A stretch of DNA of 64,000 nt from an uncultured Aminicenantes bacterium (GCA_965195285.1 CBDAFS010000003.1:1-64000), one strand, 5' to 3'; positions 5,368 to 25,840 are shown, numbered from the stretch's first letter. Numbers and translations: made by a program. The notes: generated from the letters alone by a model not told the origin.

Positions 5368-5374
5368 TTTTTTA

Positions 5375-7767: not shown

Positions 7768-7775
7768 CCACAGAC

Positions 7776-8864: not shown

Positions 8865-8865
8865 T

Positions 8866-9747
8866 TTATGATTTCATCCATCCGACATATCGACCGGCAA
8901 AACTGACAATTCTCGAACCCAGTGCAACTCCCAGTTCTTTGAGCTTTTTCTTAAACGGCAGCTTTCTTGAAATAATATAGAATGTATCTGAGATGAATTT
9001 CAGTATCATTCCACCAGTAACCAGGAACAAACCCAGTACAATATTCAAGGACCTGTATCTAAATGCTTTCAGGGATTGTCCCAGGCGGACTTTGATCCGG
9101 TACAATTCCTTGAGAGAATAATTATGAGAATGAGTGACCATTGACTTTGGTTGGTAAACAATCCGGTAACCCTGATCGATGATATTTCTGGCCCAATTCT
9201 GGTCCTCGGCAATCAGTATATGGTCATCAAATGGATATTGCTTCCAAATGGACCGTGGTATGACGCAACTGACCGTCGAAAACAACAGGGAATCCCGGGA
9301 GTTAAAACGGGATATGACCTTTCGGGAATCTGGCATCGAACACCGGATATCGCGTTCCATATAAAGATGACAATCTTGTCGGGGAATATGACGGCTGAAA
9401 ACACCGGCAAAGGACCGGTCTTGCTTGATACTGTCAATGAGTATCTTCAGCCAGTTTCTATTGGCCGGAATGGCATCGGCATTTAAAAAAACGATATATT
9501 CCCCTGCTGTCATTCGAGCGCCTGTGTTTCTGGTCTTTCCATGTCCGAACTCCTCCGGTTTTATGGAGACCAGTTTGACAGAGGGAAAACTTTTCACAAT
9601 CCGTGTGGTTTGATCGGTTGAACCGGAATCGATTACTAAAATATCAAATTGAAGATCTGTATTCTGGTCGAAAATGGCGTCCAGACATTTTTTTATATAG
9701 GTTTCCTCGTTTCGGGTCGGAATGATTATTGAAACATTCAATTTCAT
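8866..9747 (-). CDS. Glycosyltransferase family 2 (rhamnosyltransferase-like)
   Basis: SIIIPTRNEE, IDSGSTDQT, FGHGKTRN, FLNADA, AEDQNW. Confidence 0.9.
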   Translation of the reverse strand: MKLNVSIIIPTRNEETYIKKCLDAIFDQNTDLQFDILVIDSGSTDQTTRIVKSFPSVKLVSIKPEEFGHGKTRNTGARMTAGEYIVFLNADAIPANRNWLKILIDSIKQDRSFAGVFSRHIPRQDCHLYMERDIRCSMPDSRKVISRFNSRDSLLFSTVSCVIPRSIWKQYPFDDHILIAEDQNWARNIIDQGYRIVYQPKSMVTHSHNYSLKELYRIKVRLGQSLKAFRYRSLNIVLGLFLVTGGMILKFISDTFYIISRKLPFKKKLKELGVALGSRIVSFAGRYVGWMKS

Positions 9748-9923
9748 GAAAATTTTACTTTTTACAATAACTTCATTTCTGGAAAATGATTTCAATGCAA
9801 TTATGAATTATTCCTGATATTAATTCAAGACCTATCAATTGTCAATCAATTCATGACCGCATTTCTGTTTTACTCCAGCCATCAAACCATTCTTGACATC
9901 CAGGAGTAAAAATGAGAGAATAA

Positions 9924-10916
9924 ATGGGGAAATTCATGTTTATCAATCATACTTCAAAAGAAGTAACGGCAAAAATCGTCTATTACGGCCCCGGCTTAAG
10001 TGGAAAGACAACAAATCTGCAATATATATTTTCGGTAACCAATCCCCAATCTAGGGGCGAGCTGGTCAGTATCGAGACCGATATCGAGAGGACCCTGTTT
10101 TTCGACCTCCTGCCGATCAATGTGGGATTGGTGAAAGGATATCAGACCAAATTCCAGCTCTATACCGTGCCCGGCCAAATCTTCTATGATTCAACCCGGA
10201 AACTGGTATTGAAGGGCGCCGATGGAATTGTTTTTGTATGTGATTCCCAGGAACCCATGGAAAAAGCCAATATTGAAAGTCTAAAAAATCTGAAATCAAA
10301 TTTAAAGGAACACAATCAAAATTTGGCTGATCTCCCCTGTGTTTTTCAATACAACAAGAGGGATTTGGGTAATACACTCCCGATCAACGGCCTGAACCAA
10401 CTTCTGAACAATACCAACAGACCTTTTTTTGAAGCCACGGCAACCCGAGGTGAAGGGGTTATTGAAACCCTGCGAGAAATCTCCAGCCTGACTCTTATCC
10501 AGATCAAGAAAACAATCGAACATACTAAAAATATAAAAAAGGAAAGTATTCTTATTGATTTTGATACCAATGAAAACCAGGAAATCATCAAGAAAGAAGA
10601 GCTACCTTTTAAAAAGATCTCGCTGGAAAACATCTCCAGTATAAATGATAATGAATTTATCCTGGACCTTGACCAATTTGATGAAAGAGAGGAAGAGCTG
10701 AAGATCATTGAAAAAACAGTGAAGGATTCAGGCCTTGATCTCCTGAACACAATGGAGGATAAATCAAGAATTACCATTATCAAGAAAGTTCCGCTTCAAA
10801 ATTCCGAACTGTCCATTGTAGTAAAGGATTCCAATTCCAAAACACTGGAATCCATCAACCTGGATGTAAATCCGGAAGTCAAGAAAATCACCCTGATTCT
10901 GGATGTCAAAGACTAA
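9924..10916 (+). CDS. MglA-like small GTPase with C-terminal extension
   Basis: KIVYYGPGLSGKTTNL, RTLFFDLLP, LYTVPGQ, QYNKRDL. Confidence 0.9.
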   Translation: MGKFMFINHTSKEVTAKIVYYGPGLSGKTTNLQYIFSVTNPQSRGELVSIETDIERTLFFDLLPINVGLVKGYQTKFQLYTVPGQIFYDSTRKLVLKGADGIVFVCDSQEPMEKANIESLKNLKSNLKEHNQNLADLPCVFQYNKRDLGNTLPINGLNQLLNNTNRPFFEATATRGEGVIETLREISSLTLIQIKKTIEHTKNIKKESILIDFDTNENQEIIKKEELPFKKISLENISSINDNEFILDLDQFDEREEELKIIEKTVKDSGLDLLNTMEDKSRITIIKKVPLQNSELSIVVKDSNSKTLESINLDVNPEVKKITLILDVKD

Positions 10917-12273
10917 AATCTATATTTCTTTTCTCATTGTACTGACCTTTAATGCCTGCTCCATGGTTCAAAGAAATTCTCCGAAAGCGGAAATCCAGCC
11001 TCTTCCCCCGTATCTGAAAAGAGCTGAAATGCAGTTTCAGAAAGGGGAGAAAAAGTTTTCGGAAGGGGATATCCAAGCTGCCAAATACCATTTTGACCGC
11101 ACCATTAATATTTTACTGGACTCGGATTCAAAAAATCCGTTAATCAACAATCAGTTTAAGAATTATATCGATAAAATTTCAGAAATAGAACTCTATTACC
11201 TTCATTGTATTGAGCCCGATAACCTGGAGGAACACGAGACTTTTCTGCAGGAAGTCATATCCTCTCCCCTATTTGTTCCCAGTGAAAGAGAGATATCAGA
11301 GGTGAAGCAAAAACTTGACCAGAAAAAACCAGAACACACCATCCCCCTTATTGTCAACAGCAATGTGGTCTCGTTTTTGCATGCCTTTCAAACGGTTCGC
11401 AACCAGAGTATTCAGAGAGCATTAAACCGATCGGTAGAGTACTTAGATACCTTTAAGAAAATTTTTAAATCATACGAGCTTCCCGAAGAACTGATTTATA
11501 TTCCCATCATTGAAAGCGGATTCCGCTATAATGCCCTTTCCAGGGCCCGGGCCCGGGGCATGTGGCAATTTATGGCTTCCACAGCCAGAATGTTTGATCT
11601 TAGGGTTGACTGGATAGTCGACGAAAGGCTCGACCCATTCAAGTCTGCCATTGCAGCGGCAAAGTATTTCAAATGTCTGTATGATGAATACGGAGACTGG
11701 TTTTTGGCACTGGCCTGCTATAATGGCGGCACCCGCAGAGTCAACAGAGCCATTTCTCAGCTCAAAACCAGAGACTTTTTCGTAATAGCCCGGACTCGTT
11801 ACCTGAGACGGGAAACCCGAAATTATGTTCCGGCTTTTTTAGCCTCGGTGATTATTGCTCAATCTCCCACAGAATATGGTTTTTTTCTTCCGGAATCATC
11901 TCCCCGGTGGGCCTACACCAAAATCGTTAATATACCGTCTCCGGCAGATCTGCAGGCAGTGGCCAAAATATCCGGTATTGACTTGGAAACCATAAAGGAT
12001 TTGAATCCCGATTTGATCAGAGAATTTACCCCCTTCAACAAGAAATTCCATGCGCTCAGAGTTCCGCTGAATCTGGATGAAAACCTTTTGAAGAACATCA
12101 AGAGACTTCCGCCGGAAAAAGAATATTTCGTAGGCTGGTACCGGGTCAAAAAGGGAGACAGTCTTTATAAAATTGCCAGGAAATTCGGAACCTCTGTCAA
12201 AAAGATAAAAAAGACCAATAAGTTACACTCAAATCTGATCAAACCGGGTAAACAATTGTTAATTCCCCGGTAA
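10903..12273 (+). CDS. mltD: Membrane-bound lytic murein transglycosylase D-like lipoprotein (SLT + LysM)
   Basis: Lipobox FNAC; IIESG, GMWQFM, YNGG, ETRNYVP; C-terminal LysM YRVKKGDSLYKIA. Confidence 0.85.
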   Translation: MSKTKIYISFLIVLTFNACSMVQRNSPKAEIQPLPPYLKRAEMQFQKGEKKFSEGDIQAAKYHFDRTINILLDSDSKNPLINNQFKNYIDKISEIELYYLHCIEPDNLEEHETFLQEVISSPLFVPSEREISEVKQKLDQKKPEHTIPLIVNSNVVSFLHAFQTVRNQSIQRALNRSVEYLDTFKKIFKSYELPEELIYIPIIESGFRYNALSRARARGMWQFMASTARMFDLRVDWIVDERLDPFKSAIAAAKYFKCLYDEYGDWFLALACYNGGTRRVNRAISQLKTRDFFVIARTRYLRRETRNYVPAFLASVIIAQSPTEYGFFLPESSPRWAYTKIVNIPSPADLQAVAKISGIDLETIKDLNPDLIREFTPFNKKFHALRVPLNLDENLLKNIKRLPPEKEYFVGWYRVKKGDSLYKIARKFGTSVKKIKKTNKLHSNLIKPGKQLLIPR

Positions 12274-12595: not shown

Positions 12596-13648
12596 GTGAT
12601 GATAAGCCAACTAAAATCGATTATCCTGAACGGACTCGATGCAATCCTGACAGATGTTGAAGTGGGATTTTCCCGGGGAATCCCGGGAGTTACCATTGTC
12701 GGACTTCCCGACAATGCCATCAAAGAGAGCCGGGAACGGATCAAACTGGCCATCAAACATGCCGGTTTTGAATATCCGGTAGGCCAGAAAATTGTGGTCA
12801 ACCTGTCACCCGCAGACCTTCGCAAGGAAGGATCTTCCCTGGACCTCCCTATTGCAGTCGGAATATTAAAAAACAAGTATGAACTGAAAAGTCCGGTTTT
12901 CAGAAATTATCTTTTTTTTGGTGAACTCAATCTGAAGGGTGATCTGAATCCGGTCCGGGGTGTTCTGAACCTGGCCTTATTTGCCAAAAAAAACGGCTTC
13001 AAAGGAGTGGTTATTCCTTACAAAAACGGTAATGAAGCGTCTTTTGTCAGCGGAATCGATATCTATGCCTTTGAAAACCTGAAATCCGTAGTGGATTTCA
13101 TTATTGCCCCGGATCAAACGCTGCCGTTCAAGGGATCCCGCATCATCAAAGCCAGTGAAAACCAGGAAGAGGATTTCAGTGAAATCAAGGGACAGTACCT
13201 GGCCAAGCGGGTTATGGAAATTGCGGCTGCCGGTTTTCATAATGTATTGATGATCGGACCGCCCGGATCCGGTAAATCCATGCTATCAAAAGCCTTACCA
13301 TCCATTCTCCCGGATATGGAAGAAGAGGAGACTCTGGAAACCTCATTGATTTACAGTGCTACCGGCTATTTAAACCAGGACAACTACATTGTTTCCAAGA
13401 GGCCCTTCCGTTCTCCCCACCATACCATTTCAGACGTGGGGATCACCGGGGGCGGTAAATATCCGATCCCAGGGGAAATATCACTGGCCCACAATGGTGT
13501 ACTGTTCCTGGATGAACTTCCATACTTTAAAAAAACCGCCTTAGAAGTATTAAGACAGCCCCTGGAAAATGGAGAGATTACCATCTCCCGTTCTCTCACT
13601 ACCCATACATTTCCGGCAAAATTCATGCTGGTTACGGCAATGAATCCC
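12596..13648 (+). pseudogene. comM: ComM/YifB Mg-chelatase-like AAA+ ATPase, 5' part (interrupted by an integrative element)
   Basis: [56 protein letters not shown]; breaks at TAMNP. Confidence 0.95.
13633..13648 (+). repeat. att core, left direct repeat
   Basis: TACGGCAATGAATCCC, identical to 24755-24770. Confidence 0.95.
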
Positions 13649-13774
13649 ATCACTCCGTATTATAACTGAATCTTAGGGGTTTTGGGTAACGTGAGAGTAA
13701 CAGAGAATTTACTATTTTCTCAATATTTAATAAACTGGGTCTTCTGAAAAACCACTAAATTGACCCCCTCCGAT

Positions 13775-13993
13775 TTACTTTTTTAATTTAACAATCTCAA
13801 TTTCTCTTTTAGTGCCACAATGTAAAACTACAACATAATTATTTTCACTTTTTTCCTTTATTTCAAATAGAGAGCAACTCGATATACATTTCCTTTTATT
13901 CATAAAAGGACACATACAATTTCTGTCTCCATCTTTACCATAAACTAAATAATACATATCCTCATCTATTGAATCTAAAAAATAGTCTTGCAT
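13775..13993 (-). CDS. Small Cys-rich hypothetical protein (element cargo)
   Basis: 72 aa with CMCP..C..SC..HC; AGGAGG RBS; upstream TTGAAA-N16-TATAAT. Confidence 0.6.
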   Translation of the reverse strand: MQDYFLDSIDEDMYYLVYGKDGDRNCMCPFMNKRKCISSCSLFEIKEKSENNYVVVLHCGTKREIEIVKLKK

Positions 13994-14078
13994 TTAAACC
14001 TCCTTTTATGGTTTTTAATCTCTCCGCTCCAATTATATTGATGTGAAATTATATTTCAAGTTTATATTTTGAGATATT

Positions 14079-14636
14079 CTATAAAAAGCCTTTTTGTAAT
14101 TCTTTATAAGCATTTAATACATCAAGTAATGCTTGCTTTCTTTTCTTTTTAATTTTCATTTGATGATATTTTGTATCTCCAGAAAATCTAACAGCAATCT
14201 TTTGAGCTTTTGTAATTTTTTCAAGCATAGTAATATAAGATTCAGTTATCAATTTATCATACCACTCGACTCGTCTTGGACTATGAAAAATTTCTGTTTT
14301 TCTTTTTAGTGGATCAAATTCTTTTCTAAATTTCTCATCATCAGCTTTTACAATTATCCTGTTAAAAAAAATCCAACCATTTGGTTCAGCTTGAACTCTT
14401 AATCGTAGCAATACTTTTCCTTCTTCTGTTTTTCCAATATACAAATAAAAGCAATCATTTCTCCTAAGCAGATTCGTGTTACTCTTGGGTGTTAATTTTG
14501 AATGATACCATGTGATTCCTTCCATATCATCTGTTTTTTTTCTCAAATTATACTTTTGCATAAAAACAGATTCATTAAATGTAAAAAGTGATAATACAAA
14601 AAACAATAAGATGATTCCTAAAAATATTTTTTTCAT
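14079..14636 (-). CDS. Exported hypothetical protein (element cargo)
   Basis: Signal peptide, AAGGAG RBS, lies downstream of a terminator. Confidence 0.65.
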   Translation of the reverse strand: MKKIFLGIILLFFVLSLFTFNESVFMQKYNLRKKTDDMEGITWYHSKLTPKSNTNLLRRNDCFYLYIGKTEEGKVLLRLRVQAEPNGWIFFNRIIVKADDEKFRKEFDPLKRKTEIFHSPRRVEWYDKLITESYITMLEKITKAQKIAVRFSGDTKYHQMKIKKKRKQALLDVLNAYKELQKGFL

Positions 14637-14681
14637 CTCTCACTCCTTTTTATTTATATTAATAATACTATATCTTGATAT

Positions 14682-14723
14682 AAAAAAAAAGGGACCCCGC
14701 CCCATTTGTTAGACGGGGATCCC
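14682..14723 (-). terminator. Rho-independent terminator ending the element's main operon
   Basis: Minus-strand GC-rich hairpin GGGATCCCCGTC...GGCGGGGTCCC followed by T9. Confidence 0.75.
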
Positions 14724-14775
14724 CGGAGGTAAATTTATGTTACCACCCTCAAAATTTTGAAGGTTTAATTCTGTA

Positions 14776-15624
14776 TCAATCCACCGGCTGGCCAAAGGGC
14801 ATGTTTGCTCTTTGAGAAAGGGGGTCCCAAAAAGGGTGTGGTTCAGGCTGTGGTGTAAATTCTACCGGGATTAAATCTTTCCCGCTTCCGGATTCCTTAA
14901 ATGCTTTGACATCTTTTGAATAGGCAACGAAGCGGCCCATCGGCTCACCTTCCTTAATAATCACCGTTGCGGAGTTATACGCTCGAACAGAAGCCCCCGG
15001 AAATACTTCAACCCTGGAATTATTGGAAGCCCTGCAGGACTGGCTTGAAGTAAAGATATAGCCGGTTGATTTATCATGCAGATTTGTTTCAGCCCTGCAG
15101 TTACATTCCTGAATAACTTTACTGTCATTATACGCCCAGCATTGACCGCCATTCTGATTGACCTGGGAGCGGTTCAGAGCTACAATCGCCTGACCTTCTG
15201 AGCAGGTAGCTGATCCCTTGTAAATTAAATGAGATTTTGCCCACCCAGAGAGTAACTTCAAACATTCCTTTTTAATTTCATCGATATGAACCCAGCCGGG
15301 AATCTCAAAAGGTTGATGCCGCAACGCAAATTTCCACTGATCAAAAGGTACTAAATAATCAGCATTGACATAACGCACCATTCCACCGGGAGCCATCCTT
15401 AAATCAACTTTGGGTCTCATCTGGCAGGCAACGAACCCCTCAAGCTGGCCAGGCCCCGCCGCCTGGACTTCATGCCAGTCAGTGAAGCCGTAAGTCTGAT
15501 TTAAAAATTCCCTTTCATTAAGAAAATTGCCTCGCCTGTTATAATAATGATCAAACCCGCCTGCCTTTTTCTTTTTTAGGATAATCAAGGCTTTTAGAAA
15601 ACATTCCGACGCTGGCATGGTCAA
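14776..15624 (-). CDS. Hypothetical protein with short beta-solenoid-like repeats
   Basis: Recurring A-x-N/D-x-S-x-V units (ALNRSQV, AYNDSKV, ASNNSRV, AYNSATV). Confidence 0.6.
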   Translation of the reverse strand: MTMPASECFLKALIILKKKKAGGFDHYYNRRGNFLNEREFLNQTYGFTDWHEVQAAGPGQLEGFVACQMRPKVDLRMAPGGMVRYVNADYLVPFDQWKFALRHQPFEIPGWVHIDEIKKECLKLLSGWAKSHLIYKGSATCSEGQAIVALNRSQVNQNGGQCWAYNDSKVIQECNCRAETNLHDKSTGYIFTSSQSCRASNNSRVEVFPGASVRAYNSATVIIKEGEPMGRFVAYSKDVKAFKESGSGKDLIPVEFTPQPEPHPFWDPLSQRANMPFGQPVD

Positions 15625-15968
15625 TCAATTATTGGAATGGCTGGGTTTTGATTCGGATCTGTGTAGTCAATTTCATCTGGCTTCTTTTCAGTTTCATCCG
15701 GTTCTGGTTGAAATAAATCTGAATCTGTAACGATTGCCGGGTTAAATTCCGGATTGCAATAATCAGTTTTTAGATTCAAAAATTCCTGCAAGGTTTTCAT
15801 GGCCCAGCTACCCGCTTTTTCCAAAAGGACATTATCAAGGTACATTTTACCGTCTTCGTTTTGGTTCGGCCATTCTATCAACTGGCCTCCCGGAAGTTCA
15901 AGGGTGTCTGAAAATTCACCCTTTGCCTTTATCATTTGTTTTATTACGGTTTTTTCCTGTGTATACAT
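15621..15968 (-). CDS. Hypothetical acidic protein
   Basis: ORF with GAGGTG RBS, coupled to its neighbours. Confidence 0.6.
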   Translation of the reverse strand: MYTQEKTVIKQMIKAKGEFSDTLELPGGQLIEWPNQNEDGKMYLDNVLLEKAGSWAMKTLQEFLNLKTDYCNPEFNPAIVTDSDLFQPEPDETEKKPDEIDYTDPNQNPAIPIID

Positions 15969-15979
15969 TTTATCACCTC

Positions 15980-16546
15980 TTAATTTTTCCTTATTTCCTG
16001 AGCTATAATCGCATTAAGTTTTTTCCTTTCCTCTGACAAAACCCATTCACCATTTTTTAACACATGGCCGGTTGCTTTCATTCTGATTGCCTGCTCTTCA
16101 AGTTCATAAGGTGTTTTTTCAAAACAGGCAAAGTCCTTTTTCCATACCGCCCACTTTTTATAATATGTTCCCATGGGCTTTTCCTGATCCGCAGGAATCC
16201 GTTTCCAGCCTCCTATTTTTGCAATCTCTTTTTCATGCCCCCTCATTTCCAGGGAGACTTCCTCCAAGCGTACCCTGGCCGCATTGTATAGGCCCTGAAT
16301 CCGGTTCACCTTGTCTTTTTCAATCTCGGCCTCTTTACGCTGTGTCGTTATCTTTTCCAAAGCCTCCAGCCGGGGCTTGTCTTTTTCCGCTTGCTTCTCA
16401 TTTTCCTTTCTTGACTTGTCAAGCCATTTTTGATTTACATCTTTACTCTGATCTGTCATTTTGTCAAAATCAATGTCGCCAACATCCGAAGTTGAAACAT
16501 TGTCTAACGGCTTTTCTTTCTTTCTGAAAATTTTTGGTACTTCCAT
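15980..16546 (-). CDS. Hypothetical coiled-coil protein
   Basis: Charged helical ORF with GGAGGT RBS, directly after the terminase-like gene. Confidence 0.65.
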   Translation of the reverse strand: MEVPKIFRKKEKPLDNVSTSDVGDIDFDKMTDQSKDVNQKWLDKSRKENEKQAEKDKPRLEALEKITTQRKEAEIEKDKVNRIQGLYNAARVRLEEVSLEMRGHEKEIAKIGGWKRIPADQEKPMGTYYKKWAVWKKDFACFEKTPYELEEQAIRMKATGHVLKNGEWVLSEERKKLNAIIAQEIRKN

Positions 16547-16569
16547 AATTTACCTCCCAGTAAATTTAT

Positions 16570-18174
16570 TTAATCTCGGTCGCTGTAGTCATGCTCCGAA
16601 TCGTTGCTTGTGACTACTCGATTAATTTCATCCCCTTTCAATTCTATGATTTTGGTTTTATTCCTTTTTAAATCCCGGTCAAAACTATCATCAATTTGTG
16701 AACCGGGGCGGCCGTTCCCCATTAAACTATTGGGGCCGTATAACGATTCATTTGAATACCCGAAATATCCGCCGCCTGATTGATTATACTTAACGGCATA
16801 AGAACAGACCGCCATTGCATTTGATAAATCGCAATGACTCCCGTCTTTTCCCCTGGGTGATATTACGGTGTCCTTTCCTGAAAGTGTTACTTTCCTTAAT
16901 AAACTTAAAAGCTCATTGCGTAATCTCTCAGAATCCGGAAGCTCAATATTATTATCACTAAATTCCGGGATCAGTAAAATAAAACATTCGCTTGCGTTTT
17001 TATCACTGTATTCAATTTTAATCCCGCACTTATCAAACGCCTCAAAAACCCACTGGCTGCCATATCGATCCGAAAGGCATTTATTAATTTTGTATGATTT
17101 CATGGTCCCTGCAAAACGTTCAGCAACCTCGCTGGGTGTCATTTTACTTTTAACAGGTATGACTTCATCCAAAAGGTCAATGATGATTTTCCCATTCTCT
17201 AAATGAGATATACATAATGAATGGCTGTTAGCCTTGCCGCCGCTCATGTCGATTCCCGCTGAATATGAAAACTCACTCTTATAAGGTAACATTTGACGGC
17301 CCGGTACGATTGCCATATCGATTGAAACTGAATTGAATAAGCTGGATATATCATCCCTGAAAATACTCTCATATTCACAAAGTCCCCTGGCTCGATCTTT
17401 TGCAATCGCCCGGTCTATTTTCTTTTGACTAAATGTCGGATTCATTTTCCTGGTAGTACTCAACCATATTAGAGTTTCAGGATCATCCTTTCCATAGTAT
17501 TGATCATACATAGAAAATAAATAACCTTGACGGGAAAATGCACTTGATATACCAATCAGTAAAGAACCCTCCATGATCCCCGGCTCCAATGCTGTAATCA
17601 CTTCATCCGCTGGGTTTGCAAAGGTCTCTGCATTTTGCCAAAAGGCCAGTTCATCCAAGCATACCACCGGGCCATATAACGGGCCTCTGATTGCACGATA
17701 ATCTGCTACCCGGATCATAATTTTTACCCGTCCAGAATTTAGGGTGATATCCTTTTGCCTTTCAATGTTGATCTCTTTTTTAAAGAGGGGATTTGAGTTA
17801 AGCATACCACTGATAAAATTGTATATAAGACTTGCACCCGTTTTATCCTGAGCCAAAATCGGAAGTATCAACTGTTCACCGATTGCCAGCTTATCCAGGA
17901 ATTGATCTATGCTGAACAAAACTGAATATACAGATATTAGGCTTGTACAAAATGACTTGCCTCCCTTCCTTCCTACAATAGCGTATACTTCTTTAAACTT
18001 CTGATCAGGGGGCTTTGATCTACCAGTACACTTTTTATAGATTTCATATTCCTGATCTGTAAATGGAATGGCATATATTGACTTTAAGAAAGCCCGCCAT
18101 GCAGTCCAAGTTGACATATCTTTAAACAAATAACCCAATAATCCGGGATCATCCATACATTCAATGATATTCAT
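16570..18174 (-). CDS. Terminase large subunit-like protein (ATPase + RNase H-like nuclease)
   Basis: Walker A AIVGRKGGKS, Walker B VCLDELAF, motif III-like GISSA, nuclease acidic motifs GIDMSGG, SDRYG, HCDLSNA. Confidence 0.8.
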   Translation of the reverse strand: MNIIECMDDPGLLGYLFKDMSTWTAWRAFLKSIYAIPFTDQEYEIYKKCTGRSKPPDQKFKEVYAIVGRKGGKSFCTSLISVYSVLFSIDQFLDKLAIGEQLILPILAQDKTGASLIYNFISGMLNSNPLFKKEINIERQKDITLNSGRVKIMIRVADYRAIRGPLYGPVVCLDELAFWQNAETFANPADEVITALEPGIMEGSLLIGISSAFSRQGYLFSMYDQYYGKDDPETLIWLSTTRKMNPTFSQKKIDRAIAKDRARGLCEYESIFRDDISSLFNSVSIDMAIVPGRQMLPYKSEFSYSAGIDMSGGKANSHSLCISHLENGKIIIDLLDEVIPVKSKMTPSEVAERFAGTMKSYKINKCLSDRYGSQWVFEAFDKCGIKIEYSDKNASECFILLIPEFSDNNIELPDSERLRNELLSLLRKVTLSGKDTVISPRGKDGSHCDLSNAMAVCSYAVKYNQSGGGYFGYSNESLYGPNSLMGNGRPGSQIDDSFDRDLKRNKTKIIELKGDEINRVVTSNDSEHDYSDRD

Positions 18175-18243
18175 GTTATACCCTGAATAAAGCCCTTTTA
18201 AATCGATTGTAAGGGGCGATCTCTATCATATCAGTATCATTCA

Positions 18244-18663
18244 TCATGTTTTTTCACCTTTCTGTTTAGATTGAATGTAGTCTTTAAGGGTATTCCCCTT
18301 ATCTGCTTTCCTTTCAAGCCCCAGCTCACGGAGGGACCTTTGAATATTCGCACAAAACCCCAGGTATGAATTAGCCAACACCGGGGTCAACCGCCCGGAC
18401 TGCGTAAAAACTCCCTTTTCAGACACCCAGGATTCTATCAGGACCCGGCAACCAATGAGATTTACTGTTTGGTCAATCAGTATTAATTGAGCCTGGGAAA
18501 GGGTAGACAAACCCCCCAGGTCATTTATGATATTTTCCCGGACCCGGTCTAACTGAGTCTTTAAGTCTTTATGATCCGCTGGCAATATACCGGATTCCTT
18601 AAACCGATAAACTCCATGCTCACCTTTCCGGGGCCGCCCTCTTTTACGCTTTTTATCAATCAT
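18244..18663 (-). CDS. Putative terminase small subunit-like protein with AT-hook
   Basis: KRGRPRK AT-hook; helical body ending SLRELGLER; directly upstream of the TerL-like gene. Confidence 0.55.
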   Translation of the reverse strand: MIDKKRKRGRPRKGEHGVYRFKESGILPADHKDLKTQLDRVRENIINDLGGLSTLSQAQLILIDQTVNLIGCRVLIESWVSEKGVFTQSGRLTPVLANSYLGFCANIQRSLRELGLERKADKGNTLKDYIQSKQKGEKT

Positions 18664-18702
18664 TTTATCTAATTTTTACCTCATTATATCGTTATTATTT
18701 AA

Positions 18703-19014
18703 CTATTTTAATGATATTTTAATAATACGCCCGGTATTCGTTACCCGGTTGTTACTTTTTCTAATCAAACCCCTTGAAACCCTGATATAATCAGGCTTTT
18801 CAATTTCTGACAGGTTCCTTATAGGTAACCAGCACTTATTTATCAAATATAAACAACCTCTAAGCATAAAAAACTGGAAAACGTGTTTGTGATTTTTCTT
18901 TATTAAGAGGGTTGCTGATTGCCTAAAATCAGCTAAACCCTTACTCTCTTTTAAGAGAGTTTTAAAAGATTTTAGCGAAAGTTGAAATGCTTTATTATCA
19001 TTCATTTTAGGCAT
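18703..19014 (-). CDS. Hypothetical basic protein
   Basis: 103-aa ORF co-oriented with the element's operon; no clear RBS. Confidence 0.4.
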   Translation of the reverse strand: MPKMNDNKAFQLSLKSFKTLLKESKGLADFRQSATLLIKKNHKHVFQFFMLRGCLYLINKCWLPIRNLSEIEKPDYIRVSRGLIRKSNNRVTNTGRIIKISLK

Positions 19015-19018
19015 TTTC

Positions 19019-19081
19019 TGTTACAGTTAAGTTAAGTAAACGTTTCACTTAAGTTAAGTAAGTGTTACAGTTAAGTTAAGT
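19019..19081. repeat. Three iteron-like direct repeats with 22-bp period (putative origin)
   Basis: TGTTACAGTTAAGTTAAGT (19019), CGTTTCACTTAAGTTAAGT (19041), TGTTACAGTTAAGTTAAGT (19063). Confidence 0.8.
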
Positions 19082-19095
19082 CTCTCTTTTTTTTA

Positions 19096-20319
19096 TCATT
19101 TAATTAATTCCTTATCATTCACATTTTTTGACTTTTTAAACTCGAAAATAGCACTTTCTCTATTTATGGCATACCCTTTCAGCAACTTCTCTTTTACTGC
19201 AAATTCACATAAATTTTCAATCATTTTTTTAAATCTATACTGTTTGACTCGATTTTTAAAAACCCCCTTATTATTCAAATAATCATTTTTTTTTATAGTT
19301 CCGCATAATTTATTTAATTCTATTTTTTTAGGTTTTCCATGCTTGTAAAAGTTTCCGGTTTTTATCAGAAATTCCAAAAAGTTCAAATCCCATTCCCGGA
19401 CTTTTTTAAATGCTCTCAGGTTTGCGATTAAATCAGAATGAATTATTACATAAAAAAGGGACTGGGAATCTGTTAAGTCTGTGATTAAGGTTAAGTTATT
19501 TAATTGGAGATAAAGTTTACTGGTTGAAATATTTTTTGATTCAGTTTTTGGATTAAGATTGAGTTTTTCCAATGGAATAAATTTAAAAATCGGTTCATCT
19601 GAATCTATAAAATTATAAACTTTAGAATCGGTTTTATCCGGGAAAATCATATAACAAGGAAACCTTTTTTTTGTAAGTCCCACCATAGCCTTTTTTATTT
19701 TTACCAGTTCTGTGCCTTCAGTATCTTTAAAACCCAAACTTTTCATTAAGTCCACGAAATAAAAGGGAGTGATTTTGAGGTTATTATCTGATAGAATTTT
19801 GAAACCACCGAAAATAGCGAATTTTTCATAAACAGAGAGTTTGTAATTTTCCAGAAAATTTTTCCCACACCGTTCCAACATTTCATTGGCCCGTTTTATC
19901 TGTTTTTTTATATCTTTTTTTTCTTTTAAATCTGTAGTTTTTTTCAAATTGTTTTCCAGTTCCCGGACATCTGAATTAATTTTTTTAAAAGTCGCTGACT
20001 TGGTGGTCAATGATGTATTCAAATAATTTACCGGGAGTTTGATTATTTTTTTACTCCAATATTTTTTCCCCTTCAAATTGATAAAATAATCTATTCTATT
20101 TTTTAATTCTGCTTTGTCCTGAGTGTCGAAAAATAAAGATAATTTTAAAATATTTTCCTGGGATAGTGAATCGAATATATCTGATATATTAAAACAACTC
20201 AAAACATAAAAAAATTTATCCATCTCATTTCCGCTATGGCTCTGAGCCAAACTTTCAAACCTTTTATGATCATTTTTCCTGGTATGTAATATTAAATTTA
20301 AAACATTTTTCTCATTCAT
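19096..20319 (-). CDS. Hypothetical Lys-rich protein, putative replication initiator
   Basis: Translationally coupled to the helicase (TAATG overlap) and immediately followed by the iteron-like repeats; function inferred from position only. Confidence 0.5.
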   Translation of the reverse strand: MNEKNVLNLILHTRKNDHKRFESLAQSHSGNEMDKFFYVLSCFNISDIFDSLSQENILKLSLFFDTQDKAELKNRIDYFINLKGKKYWSKKIIKLPVNYLNTSLTTKSATFKKINSDVRELENNLKKTTDLKEKKDIKKQIKRANEMLERCGKNFLENYKLSVYEKFAIFGGFKILSDNNLKITPFYFVDLMKSLGFKDTEGTELVKIKKAMVGLTKKRFPCYMIFPDKTDSKVYNFIDSDEPIFKFIPLEKLNLNPKTESKNISTSKLYLQLNNLTLITDLTDSQSLFYVIIHSDLIANLRAFKKVREWDLNFLEFLIKTGNFYKHGKPKKIELNKLCGTIKKNDYLNNKGVFKNRVKQYRFKKMIENLCEFAVKEKLLKGYAINRESAIFEFKKSKNVNDKELIK

Positions 20320-21746
20320 TATCCAATCCTGTCACGTGACCCATAGTCTTCCGATTCTTCAATCTCGTTCTCTAATGTTCGGTTAAACTCTGTCATCCGG
20401 GTTGTATACTTTTGAAATTTCAACCTATATTCACCCTTGAAATAACTCAATTTGTTTTTAGCAAAACTGACTTTTAAAATAGGCTCCTTTTGATCTGAAT
20501 CGAAAAAGTCATTTTCATTTTCAGGTTCTAATAATAAAACCAAGTCGGCCCGGTAAACCAGGCGTTTACTCCCGGATATATCGGAAATGGTCAAACGCCG
20601 CTCCTTTGATTTCCCATTTTTATATTTTTGGTCTTTGTCTTTTCGTACCTCTGCCGTTGTGATTATCGGGATATCATAGTTTGATACAATTCGTTTAATA
20701 ATTTCCGCTTGCCGCTCATCACGTTCATTGCCCTGAAAATTTCCAACATCCAGATAATGGAAACCGTCAATAAAAATCACCGTATTTTTATTAATGGCCA
20801 GAGACCTCTCAATGATACGCCTAACCTCTATAATCTTAAATCGCTCTATAACATCAAGCCGTTTATCCAGGAAGTATTTTTTTACTTTTTCGACTGTCTG
20901 CCTTTGCAGATCCCCGGCTTTTATCTTTTTACCGTCAATCTGAAAAGAGGTATTATCACCCTGCCGCTTGTCAATATCCATTAATTCAATCCCTGAAATA
21001 TTGCTATACAGTCGATTCAGAATTTTATTGATTGAATCATCCAGGGTGAAATATAGACATCTTATTTCCGGGTTACTTTTCAATAAGTCTAAAAATAGAT
21101 TTACTAAAATGGCAGTTTTCCCGATATTCGATTCAGCACCTATGATATAAAATCCGGCCTGTATACCGTCCACCGCCTTTGTTAACTGAGGGTAATTTTT
21201 CAATATATAACCTTTTGGGTTTTCCGGTTCTCTTTTCAAGTCCTCAGTAAATTTTTTATCAATTCTCTGATCAAGGGTCAGTTCCGGGCTATATGACCTG
21301 TCGGTAATTTTTAAAATATCTGCATTTAATTGATTTACGATTTCATCCGGTTCATTTTGGAGTTTAAGTGATTCAGCACCCGCCCTTTGGGTCGCCTTGA
21401 ATATTTCCCTTTTTTCTGATTCTTTCTTTACCTTTTCGGCATATTCAGAGACGCTTATATTTTCCGGGATCCCGTCAACCAGCCCGTTAATATAATCATA
21501 CCCACCAATAAATTTTAATTCTTTTTTCTCTCTGAGGCATGATGATATTGTAACCGTATCAGCTCTTTTCTTTTTATCTGTCAGTTCGATAATGGCCTTT
21601 GCAATTTCCTTATGTCCATCTTTGTAAAAATCATCAATATCAATAATAGAAAAAACATCATTAATATATCGGTTGTCAATCAACATAGCACCCAAACAGG
21701 CCTTTTCTGACATTTCATCAAATGGTAACGTTTCATTCTGAGTCAT
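20319..21746 (-). CDS. DnaB-like replicative helicase (element-encoded)
   Basis: DnaB N-terminal domain (LPFDEMSEKACLGAML, DDFY..HKEI, GGYDYI); Walker A GAESNIGKT; IFIDG; ISDISGS; KNK. Confidence 0.85.
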   Translation of the reverse strand: MTQNETLPFDEMSEKACLGAMLIDNRYINDVFSIIDIDDFYKDGHKEIAKAIIELTDKKKRADTVTISSCLREKKELKFIGGYDYINGLVDGIPENISVSEYAEKVKKESEKREIFKATQRAGAESLKLQNEPDEIVNQLNADILKITDRSYSPELTLDQRIDKKFTEDLKREPENPKGYILKNYPQLTKAVDGIQAGFYIIGAESNIGKTAILVNLFLDLLKSNPEIRCLYFTLDDSINKILNRLYSNISGIELMDIDKRQGDNTSFQIDGKKIKAGDLQRQTVEKVKKYFLDKRLDVIERFKIIEVRRIIERSLAINKNTVIFIDGFHYLDVGNFQGNERDERQAEIIKRIVSNYDIPIITTAEVRKDKDQKYKNGKSKERRLTISDISGSKRLVYRADLVLLLEPENENDFFDSDQKEPILKVSFAKNKLSYFKGEYRLKFQKYTTRMTEFNRTLENEIEESEDYGSRDRIG

Positions 21747-21762
21747 TTTTTACCCCCTGTTT

Positions 21763-22233
21763 TCATTTTTCAATCCCATACAATCCCAATAAAAGGGCTT
21801 CCGCAATTCCATCATGTTTCCGGTATTTTTCCCAATCTATTTGATCCGGAAAAAGCTGTTGTGCTTTTATTATAGAATCCCCTTTTCCTTTTCCGATCAG
21901 GCCATGATATTTTTTCCACCGCACCGGCACTATAATTTCATGTCTTATATTCATTGATACAAAAATATTTCTGAAAGTATAAAACCCGCCGCCGGTCATA
22001 AAGTTTGACTTTGAGGACTGGCCCGGATAAGCATGAAGTAACTCAATAAATGCCCGGTCAATAATATCCCTATGAGTAGTAAAAATATTCCACAAAACCC
22101 TTAAATCATAATCCCAGCTTTTCTTCTTATTTTTTATGATATCCAGCACCGGCATTTTATAATAAAATTCTATTCTCTTATTATCCATTATTGCAATGGC
22201 CCCGTTTTTTCCAACATCGATACTGGCTATCAT
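21763..22233 (-). CDS. RuvC-like Holliday junction resolvase (phage type)
   Basis: IASIDVGKNGAIA, AFIE, PVRWKK, HDGIAEALL. Confidence 0.75.
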   Translation of the reverse strand: MIASIDVGKNGAIAIMDNKRIEFYYKMPVLDIIKNKKKSWDYDLRVLWNIFTTHRDIIDRAFIELLHAYPGQSSKSNFMTGGGFYTFRNIFVSMNIRHEIIVPVRWKKYHGLIGKGKGDSIIKAQQLFPDQIDWEKYRKHDGIAEALLLGLYGIEK

Positions 22234-22454
22234 TTATATTTCCTGACTTCCTTTATGTCGCCATCAATAGATAATTGACCGATCCGAATTAAAAGGTCGG
22301 CTTTGATTTTATAGGGACTTGATAATTTTCCCAGTTTCCCGGATTGAATTAAATACGAAAAGAATCGGAGCAGATCCCTTGAAGTCATTTTGCCCGTTTC
22401 GTACTGGATGATCCAGAAAGAGAGTCGATGATCTTCATCAATGAAATTTTCCAT
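22230..22454 (-). CDS. Small hypothetical phage-like protein
   Basis: 74-aa ORF overlapping the resolvase start (ATGA). Confidence 0.55.
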   Translation of the reverse strand: MENFIDEDHRLSFWIIQYETGKMTSRDLLRFFSYLIQSGKLGKLSSPYKIKADLLIRIGQLSIDGDIKEVRKYK

Positions 22455-22473
22455 AGTTCACACCAAAGCCCCT

Positions 22474-22710
22474 TTATTTTGAATTGTTAATAATATGATC
22501 AGCGGCCTGGGTTTCCACTTCTTTTTGAGTTCTAACAGGATTTGAAAAAATAAAATTATCCAGGTCTGACTTTTTGAAAATGATTTTTTTCTTAGACGGT
22601 TTGAAATATTTGATTTGCTTTAAACTGGTCAGTTTATAAAGCCAATGAGTTGAAATATTCAAATATAAAGCCGCCTGTTTTACGTTCATGATCTGACTTT
22701 GTTCTGACAT
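22474..22710 (-). CDS. Excisionase-like HTH_17 DNA-binding protein
   Basis: MNVKQAALYLNISTHWLYKLTSLKQIKYFKP...IIFKKSDLDNFI; GGAGGT RBS. Confidence 0.85.
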   Translation of the reverse strand: MSEQSQIMNVKQAALYLNISTHWLYKLTSLKQIKYFKPSKKKIIFKKSDLDNFIFSNPVRTQKEVETQAADHIINNSK

Positions 22711-22825
22711 AAATACCTCCAATATTATTTATTCACCTATATTGTGCTATATGTTGGGGGATTAATCTTACGGGGTTTTCCGCTATTTTCTATGATTTTC
22801 TATGGAAAAATAAAATAATTTTAGA

Positions 22826-23458
22826 TTATTCGACTTTTTCCTGAAATTTTTCTTTAAAACGAATTAAATCAGAACCTTTTATTTCAAACTTTTTTGATAT
22901 TTTTGATTTTTCAGCTTCTAAAGATATCAACCCATCTTCTTTATGATTTTTCCCACCATGTATATAATTTAGTATTGACCTTTCATCACAATTATAAAGC
23001 TCTGCCGCTTCTTTTACTGAATAGATTTTATCCGGGTCAATTTTTTGAGTTTCCCTTCCAAGCCCGGCTTTAACGTTTTTTGATTTTTTTAAATTCTCTA
23101 ACTCAAACAAATTTTTTTCATACTCTATTAAAGCTTCCAATTTTTCAATAATAGATGGTACTTTAAAATCAAATTCTTGAAGTAATTCTTTTCCATGTTT
23201 TGTAAAATCTACAGCAAAAGAACCATCGATTTTTTGTTTTTCATCTTTTAAAACTTTTAAGAGACATTCAATTCTATTTTTCCTTTTTTTAATTTCTTTA
23301 CATGGTTCTATAATTAATTCATATTTCTCATTTTCTAATTTTACATATAAATAAATCCAATACCTTTGCTGTGTCGGTATAGGCCAAGCTCTAATATCTT
23401 TACCTTCAAATTCTGCAATTTCTTTTTCTACGGCTTTTAAAAATTCATGTTCATTCAT
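22826..23458 (-). CDS. Hypothetical protein with C-terminal HTH
   Basis: KIYSVKEAAELYNCDERSILNYIHGG; overlaps the integrase stop. Confidence 0.65.
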   Translation of the reverse strand: MNEHEFLKAVEKEIAEFEGKDIRAWPIPTQQRYWIYLYVKLENEKYELIIEPCKEIKKRKNRIECLLKVLKDEKQKIDGSFAVDFTKHGKELLQEFDFKVPSIIEKLEALIEYEKNLFELENLKKSKNVKAGLGRETQKIDPDKIYSVKEAAELYNCDERSILNYIHGGKNHKEDGLISLEAEKSKISKKFEIKGSDLIRFKEKFQEKVE

Positions 23459-24554
23459 AATTCACCTCAATTTCCGGTAGTAAATCAACCGCCTGTCTCT
23501 TTTTATCATCTACAATTTTAGAATAAATCTCTGTGGCCTGCAAAGTTTTATGACCCAGCATTTTTGACAGCGTATAGATACCAACACCACTGGTTAGACT
23601 CATAACGGCAAACGAATGCCGGGATACATGGAAATGAACATTTTTATCAATCCCTGCTCTGGCCGCCCAAACTTTTAACGCCCTGTCAATCTGTGAATGA
23701 TTCTGTATTTCAAAAACCCTTTTTCCTTTCAATTTGTCAAATTCAATATTTTCAATATTCAATATTTTCTGAGCACTTTTTGAAAGGTAAAGATATTCAT
23801 ATCCCTTTGTCTTTTGCTGTCTAAAATCAATCCTATAATAAACATCACCTTTAACAATATCTTTTTGAAAATCATTCCAGTTTAAATTAAAGGCGTCATT
23901 TTTTCGTAACCCGGTATAACAGCAAAAAAGAAAAATCTTTTTCACCCCTGAATTATTGCAAGGTGTGTTTGCCAGTTTCTGAATTTCCTCAAAAGTTAAA
24001 TGAGTCCTTTTAGTTTCCAGGGATTTTATATTTGAAACATTACTTCCGGGACTGGTTTCGATTATTTCATCTCTTACCGCTTGATTTAGGGTAGCTTTAA
24101 TTTTAACAAAATAATTATGGGCCGTGTTTTGATGAAGTGAATCCTGGAATAACAAAAACTCTTTAAACTGCTCTAAAAATGACCGGGTAACATTTTCAAT
24201 AGTAATATCTTGTAAACCCTTTTCAATTAAAAACTTTTTCAAATAATTCAAGGTATTTTGCCATGCCCTATTGTTTTTTGATCTCTCATTTTTGAGCTTA
24301 TTAAAGTATGTTATAAAGCTCCCCTTTTTCTTAAAATTAGATATTGAACCGTTATTAGAGCTGGCAATCTCTAACTGTTTTCTGGCTCTGATATTTTCTG
24401 CAAGTCTCCAGGTTTCTTTATTGACCTCTTTATCATTTTCCAGGTAGAGGTTTAAAAAATCATATTCACGTTCCCCATTATTGTAAATATCTAAATAAAG
24501 TGAACGTCTGTTACCTTTCCCTTTTAGCTTTTTTTCTCTAATTTTAACACTCAT
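23451..24554 (-). CDS. Site-specific tyrosine integrase (arm-binding + SAM-like + catalytic domains)
   Basis: RSLYLDIY arm domain; catalytic R (YTGLR), K (QQKT), HxxR (HVSRHSFA), H (LGH), Y (TEIY). Start at 24554 has an AAAGGA RBS. Confidence 0.95.
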   Translation of the reverse strand: MSVKIREKKLKGKGNRRSLYLDIYNNGEREYDFLNLYLENDKEVNKETWRLAENIRARKQLEIASSNNGSISNFKKKGSFITYFNKLKNERSKNNRAWQNTLNYLKKFLIEKGLQDITIENVTRSFLEQFKEFLLFQDSLHQNTAHNYFVKIKATLNQAVRDEIIETSPGSNVSNIKSLETKRTHLTFEEIQKLANTPCNNSGVKKIFLFCCYTGLRKNDAFNLNWNDFQKDIVKGDVYYRIDFRQQKTKGYEYLYLSKSAQKILNIENIEFDKLKGKRVFEIQNHSQIDRALKVWAARAGIDKNVHFHVSRHSFAVMSLTSGVGIYTLSKMLGHKTLQATEIYSKIVDDKKRQAVDLLPEIEVNYE

Positions 24555-24754
24555 GATCAATCCTTTAAATTTGATTGAGTAACATTTTAATTTGTTACTC
24601 ATTATAATAGTAACATGAAAGTAACATAATATCAACTATAATGTATAATAATATGAAAAAATAGAAAAATATAAACATCATGGTATATCCTTTGTTTACA
24701 AGCTTATAAAAGGATATACAGTCAAATATAATCATATAAAAGATTGATGATAAA

Positions 24755-24770
24755 TACGGCAATGAATCCC
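24755..24770 (+). repeat. att core, right direct repeat
   Basis: TACGGCAATGAATCCC, identical to 13633-13648. Confidence 0.95.
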
Positions 24771-25253
24771 TGTGAAGACTCAATCGGAATCAAGGAATAT
24801 CAATATTACAATTGCACGGAATCCCAGCGAAGAAACTACTATTCAAAAATTTCAAAACCACTGCTGGACCGAATTGATTTGCAAATTGAGGTGAAAAAAG
24901 TCAAAATTGATGAAATCACCTCCACTGTTCAGGCAGAAAGTTCCAAGGATATCAAGCACCGAGTGGTGAAAGCCAGGCAAGCTCAACTCCAGCGTTTTAA
25001 AAACCTCAAACATAAAATATTCGCCAATGGGCAAATGTCCAATAAAGAAATAAAACAATTTTGTTCCCTCACCCGCCAAAGTGAAGAGCTCATAAACAGC
25101 GCCATTGACAAATTGAATTTAAGCGCCCGGAGTTATTTTAAAATTCTGAAAATTGCCAGAACTATTGCCGATCTCGAAAATGCAACTGAAATTAAAACCA
25201 GCCATCTTCAAGAGGCCCTCCAGTATCGAAACCTTGACCTGTTCCGTCTATAA
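24755..25253 (+). pseudogene. comM: ComM/YifB, 3' part
   Basis: TAMNPC...KISKPLLDRIDL...LSARSYFKILKIARTIADL...EALQYR; joins the 5' part in frame to give 511 aa. Confidence 0.95.
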
Positions 25254-25264
25254 GAAATGAGTGA

Positions 25265-25840
25265 TCAATCCTGGATGGTAAGCCGGGTGGAGTCATCCTC
25301 ATTCTGGTAAAAATCGGTCAGCAGCCGGACCAGTATCGGTGCGTATTTTTCTCCACAACCATAACAAACTGGCCTGAAAACAGCGGATGATGAATAATCA
25401 AATAAAAAAAGTCCCAGTGGTATTTTGGTCTGGCTTCTTCTTCCGCACATAGCGCAGGGTTCTTCTCGGTTGATATTGTTGAATTTTATCACCAGATGCG
25501 GATGCAAATCATATTCAAACCCGGCATCAATCACATCACCGGTCTTACAATCCAACAATCCGGAACTTCCCAGTTCGGTAATCTTGGAGTAATATTTTGA
25601 TTTATTCCAATGCGGGAGAGATTTCACATATTCTTTAGCTTCTGCCACGGTTTTAAATCGCGTCTCATCACTTCTGTCTTTAAAAGTACTCAGAATGGTT
25701 ACATCTATTTCTTTATCAATTTTTATATCCCCGACCAAACAATGCAGGGTACCATCGCCCACTTCAACCCATTCTACCCAGCCATTCCCATCAGAAGATT
25801 CAAAAATTAAATTTCCATTCAAATTATATTGTTTTTTCAT
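25265..25840 (-). CDS. Hypothetical protein with two CxxC pairs
   Basis: CAMC...CYGC. Confidence 0.55.
   Translation of the reverse strand: MKKQYNLNGNLIFESSDGNGWVEWVEVGDGTLHCLVGDIKIDKEIDVTILSTFKDRSDETRFKTVAEAKEYVKSLPHWNKSKYYSKITELGSSGLLDCKTGDVIDAGFEYDLHPHLVIKFNNINREEPCAMCGRRSQTKIPLGLFLFDYSSSAVFRPVCYGCGEKYAPILVRLLTDFYQNEDDSTRLTIQD

Follow-up and report, generated by a model that had tools for sequence, protein, structure and literature searches.

We studied an integrated element in the genome of an uncultured Aminicenantes bacterium, which lies within a stretch of 64,000 nucleotides (GCA_965195285.1 CBDAFS010000003.1:1-64000; hereafter the window) and interrupts the gene comM. Judging from its genes and boundaries, the element is probably, if only by a little, a phage satellite of the phage-inducible chromosomal island (PICI) kind that is complete, integrated and dependent on a helper, carries its own small and large terminase subunits (TerS and TerL) and is devoid of head, portal and tail genes. 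A preliminary description of the window had suggested, as one possibility, a distinct satellite class with its own packaging motor. The terminase, the lack of head genes and the recurrence of the same layout in other genomes speak for this proposal, and the tail-related genes of some relatives speak against it.

An integrated element in a split comM

The element is delimited by a direct repeat of 31 nt, 81% identical between 13618-13648 and 24740-24770, with a spacing of 11,122 bp in the repeat scan. The final 16 nt of this repeat, TACGGCAATGAATCCC, constitute the attachment (att) core, and its left copy (13633-13648, 16 bp) and right copy (24755-24770) are identical. An open reading frame (ORF) at 12596-13669 on the plus strand encodes the N-terminal part of a ComM/Mg-chelatase protein (PF01078, 6.3e-70, profile positions 1-159 of 207; PF13541, 7.3e-42), and an ORF at 24744-25253 encodes the ComM C-terminal part (PF01078 positions 151-206; PF13335, 3e-32). 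Up to the end of the left core, the comM 5' part (12596-13648, plus strand; Pfam Mg_chelatase and ChlI) comprises 351 codons, and the 3' part (24771-25253, plus strand; Mg_chelatase_C, 3e-32) comprises 160. By coordinate arithmetic, the junction of 13648 with 24771 is in frame and gives a comM of ~511 codons; therefore, precise excision at the core would restore one comM.

All 15 ORFs of the element are open and lie on the minus strand. The preliminary description of a complete 11,122-bp unit with both att repeats is confirmed by the identical 16-bp cores and the in-frame split of comM, and the single orientation and gene order that it gave are confirmed by ORF calls and by Pfam and PHROG scans, with its count of 13 ORFs corrected to 15. 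The GC content is 28-35% at 18.5-24.7 kb, the half with the replication and integration genes, and 39-42% at 14.5-18.5 kb, the half with the packaging and accessory genes, with flanks of ~40%. This GC step at ~18.5 kb suggests that the element is a mosaic, recombinant of two sources.

The terminase genes

The protein of 534 aa encoded at 16570-18174 (minus strand) matches phrog_9 (6.2e-11) and phrog_4914 (2.1e-4), and its match to Pfam TerL_ATPase falls below the cut-off (19.8 vs 23.7 bits). In an alignment with five TerL homologs of related genomes, which have 37-41% identity to it, G68, R69, G71, K73, D174, E175, D309, D369 and D449 are invariant in all six proteins. We take G68-K73 to be Walker A, D174 E175 to be Walker B, and D309, D369 and D449 to be the Asp residues of an RNase-H-like nuclease. 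By its sequence, the protein is a large terminase subunit with ATPase and nuclease parts. The earlier TerL-like call is strengthened by the phrog_9 match and the invariant motifs and, with a Pfam match below the cut-off, leans on PHROG.

When IMG/VR was scanned with the TerL alignment, 17 loci were retrieved, whose identity is 22-35%. Portal families match strongly (1e-32 to 4e-93 in PHROG) downstream of TerL in seven of the eight loci scanned there (L061, L062, L065, L067, L069, L070, L073 and L076), and the portal-adjacent TerLs are 30-35% identical to the window TerL. The remaining locus, L062, carries a tape-measure-like gene without a portal match downstream of TerL. L072 has its portal cluster in common with L069, and replication genes stand upstream of TerL in L068 and L074. 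The adjacency of portals and TerL in these contigs indicates that genuine tailed phages possess TerLs of this family, and also that the search approach detects portals where they are present. In addition, a TerL profile gave no match at E<=1 among PDB sequences, and tblastn against 50,697 phage records of GenBank found a single TerL match, at 24.5%; thus, no close cultured phage relative of this TerL is known.

Directly ahead of terL, at 18244-18663 (minus strand), a protein of 139 aa is encoded that is probably the small terminase, as judged from the conservation of its position and a weak match in fold. Its homolog is found immediately upstream of TerL in all five family-level loci, and a gene of the same TerS cluster precedes the TerL-portal pair of L070. 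The model built from 15 sequences is all-helical (pLDDT 75), and among 350,542 PDB chains the HK97 small terminase 8pop_B ranks first as a fold match (probability 0.97, TM 0.51/0.56, E 0.29). What the preliminary description had called TerS-like therefore keeps the support of position and fold, and that of a family match is missing.

Genes downstream of terL and the search for head genes

Three genes follow terL. The first encodes a Lys/Glu-rich orphan of 188 aa (15980-16546, minus strand), for which only itself was found and no usable Atlas match was obtained, and the second an acidic orphan of 115 aa (15621-15968, minus strand), which found only itself among 5.8 billion clusters. Neither matches any family in Pfam, PHROG, NCBIfam or PADLOC. 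By usual sizes, proteins of 188 and 115 aa fall short of the length of portals and HK97-type capsid proteins, and 115 aa lies within the size range of a head-tail adaptor. The third gene encodes a protein of 282 aa (14776-15624, minus strand), modelled by AF2 (pLDDT 83.4) as an N-terminal alpha/beta domain followed by a C-terminal beta-solenoid. It has eight homologs at 45-57% identity, in the Atlas it lies nearest to clusters of viral hypothetical proteins, and searches of 300 further genomes of the class and of GenBank phages gave no match. Foldseek of the model against PDB gave nothing at E<=1e-3 (best, a beta-helical cyclase-associated protein, E 0.18), and the best BFVD match is an uncharacterised siphovirus protein (3.5e-4). 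As modelled, the 282-aa protein has neither an HK97 nor a portal fold.

No head or portal family matched the ORFs of the element in Pfam, PHROG and NCBIfam (the last two ORFs in Pfam only), nor did any family of capsid, protease, portal, tail, head-tail adaptor/connector or HNH proteins match the scanned ORFs. These scans agree with the preliminary description, which had recognised no portal, capsid, protease or tail gene, and the capsid or portal protein that it thought might hide among the unknown ORFs did not appear, with a beta-solenoid in the 282-aa protein and two orphans of 188 and 115 aa. P4-type families (psu/delta/sid and alpha primase) likewise had no match on the ORFs of the element. 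P4-like satellites carry psu/delta/sid capsid-size genes and an alpha primase, and use the cos site and terminase of the helper.

The five ORFs of the element that have no assigned function would also accommodate a tiny but complete virus with structural genes that have diverged beyond recognition. We consider this reading highly improbable, because no ORF besides those of the integrase, the DnaB helicase, a 407-aa protein and TerL exceeds 282 aa, and the 282-aa protein is a beta-solenoid. Moreover, ~6 kb of the 11.1 kb are used for integration and replication, and by usual gene sizes the rest would be too small for portal, capsid and tail.

A strong terminator-like hairpin at 14718-14695 (minus strand; eight pairs, six of them G-C, with a T run after) ends the long operon and separates the 282-aa ORF from the last two genes, for which Pfam and PADLOC gave no match. 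These cargo genes encode a protein of 185 aa with a hydrophobic N-terminus (14079-14636, minus strand), possibly an exported product to judge from its sequence, and a Cys-rich protein of 72 aa (13775-13993, minus strand), ahead of which lies a promoter-like site (14059-14032, minus strand, 11/12 matches).

Several further observations concern this region and its surroundings. The 115- and 282-aa proteins both end in a Pro/Glu-rich C-terminal tail with F-x-P-x-P-E, which is conserved in the 282-aa family; a common C-terminal Pro-Glu-Pro motif of the two ORFs was rejected, since their match is not significant (BLASTP E 3.8). Beyond the element, a Cys-containing ORF of 191 aa without a Pfam match (25265-25840, minus strand) adjoins the 3' end of comM.

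Relatives of the element in bacterial genomes

A TerL homolog was found in 6 of 72 genomes of the family, the window's own included, and in 20 of 401 genomes sampled across the phylum, for which 20 further loci were fetched. The five family-level loci match the window TerL at 38-45% identity, and by record titles the nearest TerL relatives are metagenome-assembled genomes of Candidatus Aminicenantes. Among the 24 loci with a called TerL ORF, an integrase-cluster ORF is present in 16 and a TerS-cluster ORF in 17. The usual order in relatives is integrase, small genes, large replication protein, TerS, TerL and variable genes. Five Acidobacteriota relatives are bounded by repeats of 19-50 bp lying 10.4-16.1 kb apart, four of them at tRNA genes: L010 (45-bp repeat, tRNA-Thr, spacing 10,655 bp), L042 (43 bp, tRNA-Arg, 13,487 bp), L050 (48 bp, tRNA-Glu, 16,085 bp) and L051 (50 bp, tRNA-Pro, 10,770 bp). 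The fifth, L045, has a 19-bp repeat with a spacing of 10,431 bp, and no tRNA was found there.

No head family was found in Pfam or PHROG among the ten proteins downstream of TerL in the five family-level loci. Across the 24 genome loci, 132 downstream ORFs (at least 100 aa, within 6 kb of TerL, excluding the TerL, integrase and TerS clusters) gave no head or portal family in the best 25 of 172 PHROG families, which are transposases, helicases, primases and unknowns, and jackhmmer with seven portal seeds found no portal in the genome loci. In the five bounded elements, 53 non-core ORFs (leaving aside two large replication proteins, L010 7731-9005 and L051 11521-13860, and the clusters of TerL, TerS and integrase) gave no portal or capsid in the best 25 of 40 PHROG families. 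Sequence set A4 was used without the 214-aa L064 member, and set A6 without P0022 and P0025-P0027. As to whether homologous elements consistently carry head or tail genes, which would have made the element a deleted prophage in the preliminary description, they do not carry them consistently, and a few carry tail-related genes (tape-measure-like, Neck1, fn3/tail-like).

Relatives also occur beyond the phylum. A one-genome-per-species scan with TerL gave 44 loci, many of them from Alphaproteobacteria, and 39 loci (L083-L121; L078-L082 duplicate earlier loci) were examined by ORF clustering, with integrase and portal seeds and by an att search. An integrase-like ORF is present in 24 of the 39, in most of them on the strand of TerL and 5-7 kb upstream of it, the TerS cluster is present in 23, and a portal seed matched in one (L083). 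Eleven of these loci are bounded by repeats of 24-57 bp, 10.6-18.1 kb apart, most of which look, by eye, like tRNA ends, bringing the repeat-bounded relatives to 16 overall, with sizes of 10.4-18.1 kb. The relative L089 from Acetobacter pomorum is a contig of 14,168 bp with identical 51-bp ends, running from the integrase through TerL to a 667-aa protein, and this contig may represent either the excised, circular form of a related element or a repeat-bounded assembly effect. Relatives are present in cultured strains of Bradyrhizobium, Methylobacterium, Methylocapsa and Acetobacter, which makes the satellite idea testable at the bench. Cultured strains with bounded islands of this type include Bradyrhizobium erythrophlei GAS478 (L087), Methylobacterium aquaticum DSM 16371 (L114), Methylobacterium alsaeris MA0201 (L097) and Acetobacter pomorum LHT 2458 (L089).

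Two observations on single loci may be added. In L009, a SocA/Panacea-domain protein (11565-12191, 1.1e-17) is encoded after a 57-aa ORF just downstream of TerL, which suggests toxin-antitoxin or defence cargo. In genome G051, two TerS-TerL loci (L011 and L012) lie ~80 kb apart on one contig, and their TerLs are 68% identical.

Exchange and selection of TerL

A TerL tree was built from 35 cluster ORFs of at least 420 aa (quick IQ-TREE, SH-aLRT only), omitting fragments (L055, which is split, and L060), L057 (no TerL ORF called) and L063, L069, L071, L072 and L075 (outside the cluster). In this tree, the window and the five Aminicenantes-family loci group together with an SH-aLRT of 100, and all six are portal-less. 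With coarse context labels, the six portal-linked rows need five changes and are scattered among the island TerLs. The window TerL itself has an odd residue make-up and stands on a long branch.

The islands L046 and L047 of one genome have only 1.9 kb in common (9243-11155 and 8796-10709, respectively), which is essentially TerL at 96% nucleotide identity, and their flanks are unrelated; L046 and L052 have 4.2 kb in common. The dN/dS of island TerLs is 0.28, 0.15, 0.16 and 0.10 in the four usable pairs and 0.43 in the mosaic pair, with three pairs saturated. The low dN/dS and the TerL-only segment common to L046 and L047 suggest that TerL is kept functional in the islands and moves as a cassette.

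These data bear on the reading that the element is a decayed prophage, left when a deletion directly behind terL removed the head and tail genes of a temperate phage, and perhaps still able to excise, with no satellite spread. The TerL family does occur in integrase-bearing prophages with a portal next to TerL (L061 and L065), the replication module with its DnaB and RuvC-like resolvase is phage-like, and the sharp GC change at ~18.5 kb marks past recombination. However, an identical truncation would be needed many times over to account for the 16 bounded relatives, the window clade consists of six portal-less TerLs, island TerLs are under purifying selection with their catalytic residues kept, and neither the 15 ORFs nor the two att cores show damage. 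We therefore hold a decayed prophage to be distinctly unlikely.

On a wider scale, islands of 10-18 kb with integrase, replication genes, TerS and TerL and without head genes may represent an unnamed satellite class across phyla (Acidobacteriota including Aminicenantes, Alphaproteobacteria and others), which would bring a complete terminase to helper procapsids and stay portal-compatible by TerL cassette swaps with phages. Our confidence in this broader proposal falls a little short of even.

Integration and replication genes and a proposed satellite cycle

Upstream of the terminase genes lies the module through which the element would integrate, excise and replicate. The tyrosine integrase (23451-24635, minus strand; PF00589, 6.3e-18; PF13102, 4.7e-20; PF17293, 3.9e-6) probably has its real start inside the listed ORF. 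It is followed by a possible regulator of 210 aa with a C-terminal HTH_17-like motif (22826-23458, minus strand; HTH_17, 6e-4, below the cut-off; phrog_2655 excisionase, 0.0019) and by a small Xis/AlpA-type helix-turn-helix (HTH) protein of 82 aa (22474-22722, minus strand; PF12728 HTH_17, 2.4e-9, above the cut-off). In the Pfam scan, the AlpA family model itself had no match near int, where the HTH_17 protein and the weaker second one were found. Next come a DUF7417 protein (22230-22454, minus strand; PF24192, 1.5e-8; phrog_3908, 1.3e-7), a RuvC-like Holliday-junction resolvase of 156 aa (21763-22233, minus strand; phrog_1770, 3.1e-17, without a Pfam match) and a DnaB-type replicative helicase (20319-21746, minus strand; DnaB, 7.5e-22; DnaB_C, 2.1e-15).

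The 407-aa protein (19096-20319, minus strand), whose start overlaps the dnaB stop, is a putative replication initiator by position only. It has no family match in Pfam, PHROG or NCBIfam, a library of 1.84 billion contains 17 representatives of it, all unnamed, and its profile gave no meaningful PDB match. After its own stop come three 19-nt direct repeats with a 22-bp period (19019-19081; 100/84/100% identical), which are candidate origin iterons or a candidate pac site. In SaPI-type islands (those of the Staphylococcus aureus pathogenicity islands, SaPIs), the origin is usually placed after the replication gene. The putative Rep of the preliminary description thus retains its position before the iterons, with neither family nor structure support for the 407-aa protein. 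No primase matched on the element, which has the DnaB helicase, the 407-aa protein and the three iterons instead. The combination of DnaB and RuvC, which had been called atypical, is not very much so: the replication modules of relatives are interchangeable, and DnaB-like matches occur in four loci. Between the iterons and the TerS gene, a 103-aa ORF (18703-19014, minus strand) has a sub-threshold Pfam match only and no homolog in the fetched relative loci, giving it no support as a gene, and is doubtful.

A cycle can be proposed for the element as a satellite, in which the genes and sites are observed and each step is deduced from gene content. Excision at the 16-bp core, which would restore comM, would be carried out by the tyrosine integrase together with the Xis/AlpA-type HTH protein. 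The 407-aa protein would bind the three iterons and load the element's own DnaB, and replication would yield concatemers, with branches cleared by the RuvC-like resolvase. TerS would then select a pac site on the element DNA, and TerL would cut the DNA, dock on the portal of a helper procapsid and fill the procapsid with satellite DNA. Packaging would probably be headful, with several 11-kb units per particle, because no capsid-size gene is evident. Helper tails would complete the particle. The 188-, 115- and 282-aa genes would be accessory, possibly for interference with the helper, and the two genes past the terminator would be cargo.

The same genes could belong to a self-replicating integrative island that does not travel in helper capsids and uses its terminase for anti-phage interference, by cutting or mis-packaging phage DNA, or for processing its own concatemers. 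Such a use would fit the full replication set of the element, the failure to identify a helper, a pac site or a gene for capsid size, and the related islands with accessory genes downstream of TerL, such as the one with the SocA/Panacea-domain protein. We nevertheless judge it rather unlikely, since PADLOC on ten window ORFs, TerL included, gave no match to defence systems, TerS and TerL are conserved together, and a conserved ATPase motor would not be needed by a nuclease alone. Moreover, the exchange of TerL cassettes with phage lineages fits the need to match a helper portal.

Helper, particles and structural genes

The host genome (94.9% complete, 62 contigs) contains no match to PF05065, PF04860, phrog_145 or phrog_12, and phrog_9 matches this TerL only. 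One DNA run, a marine sediment metagenome that is the probable source, contains the element, and a second run of the same study contains almost none of it; no RNA runs containing the stretch are listed, and there are no such virome runs. A short joint between 13701 and 14018 stems from a read contig in which 812 other letters separate these two positions.

Several points weigh against the reading as a satellite free of structural genes. A resident helper prophage was not detected in the host genome with these five families, TerL must fit the portal of its helper, and such a helper is not known. In the contigs of the one probable source run, the junction of an empty site or circle is absent and the integrated form is spanned, and nothing in the reads of this single run points to excision, circularisation, a helper or packaging into particles. 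The TerS candidate has no family match, alone (Pfam, PHROG and NCBIfam) or across its 15 cluster members (Pfam), and the E value of its fold match to the HK97 small terminase is only 0.29. The 188- and 115-aa orphans could be small head-accessory proteins (scaffold, decoration or adaptor), and each PHROG tally in relatives covers the best 25 families, so that single weak head matches could be hidden.

The relatives themselves supply further points of this kind. L008, the closest relative, encodes, in the second gene downstream of TerL and behind a 184-aa ORF, a protein of 1045 aa with three fn3 domains (5294-8431), which matches tail-type PHROGs (major tail protein, 1.8e-14). The bounded relatives carry one Neck1/tail-completion match (3.7e-13) and one tape-measure-like match (4.3e-8). 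Proteins of L114 (13275-15911, Methylobacterium) and L089 (12063-14066, Acetobacter) partly match phage genes, over 8-52% of the query, most of which are annotated as tail tape measure, transglycosylase or lysozyme-type; the large downstream proteins of L114, L089 and L087 have no PDB match. These tail-type matches indicate that the class is not uniformly free of structural genes.

Comparison with known systems

In the passages of the literature that were available, terL separates capsid-forming PICIs (cf-PICIs) from PICIs, classical satellites rely on phage TerL, and cf-PICIs carry capsid, protease, portal, head-tail adaptor, connector and HNH genes (de Sousa 2023; cf-PICI preprint). The statements of the preliminary description on terminases in PICIs and cf-PICIs agree with these passages, and the one on PICMIs (phage-inducible chromosomal minimalist islands) agrees with a further passage. 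No published satellite class with TerS and TerL and without head genes was found in the literature searched, which covered the accessible parts of papers outside supplements and subscription content.

VEIMEs, which are marine virion-encapsidated integrative mobile elements, have TerS homologs and 'motor-like ATPases', with no TerL mentioned in the part of the source consulted (PMC9618062), and a figure legend of a separate preprint gives 8% of VEIMEs as encoding terminases, with the subunit unnamed. As far as these excerpts go, VEIMEs, which are packaged as concatemers in full-size capsids, resemble the element as small integrase-bearing elements of environmental bacteria with TerS homologs and no major capsid gene. 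They are defined by their presence in virions, which for the element is a prediction. For tycheposons, the excerpts mention a capsid protein or TerS.

The IMG/VR temperate phages (L061, L065, L067, L070, L073 and L076) are similar to the element in TerL (30-35% identity), in the TerS-cluster gene upstream (L070) and in having an integrase (L061 and L065). They differ in the portal directly after TerL, and L065 also has a tape-measure gene. An intact tailed prophage differs more generally from the element, which measures 11.1 kb and has no portal, major capsid or tail match. P4-like satellites differ in using a helper terminase, whereas the element has its own.

In layout, the element resembles classical PICIs (SaPIs and Gram-negative PICIs), which have 10-18 kb, int at one end beside an Xis/AlpA-type HTH protein (a candidate in the element), their own replication module followed by iterons (likewise candidates in the element) and TerS, and accessory or cargo genes at the far end. 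In contrast to them, the element carries its own TerL with intact motifs, and in place of the usual pri-rep it has a DnaB-type helicase and a 407-aa protein of unassigned function. With cf-PICIs it has in common that TerS and TerL are both on board, whereas the capsid, protease, portal, adaptor/connector and HNH genes of cf-PICIs were not found on it.

To our knowledge, known satellites either borrow the TerL of the helper (PICIs, PICI-like elements (PLEs) and P4) or also build their own heads (cf-PICIs). If the proposed reading is true, satellites exist in Acidobacteriota, and terL is no safe phage marker in prophage and virome pipelines. The motor would be foreign to the capsid being filled, raising the question of TerL-portal compatibility, and the helper would be taken over at a different point from that used by these known satellites, by a complete packaging enzyme alone.

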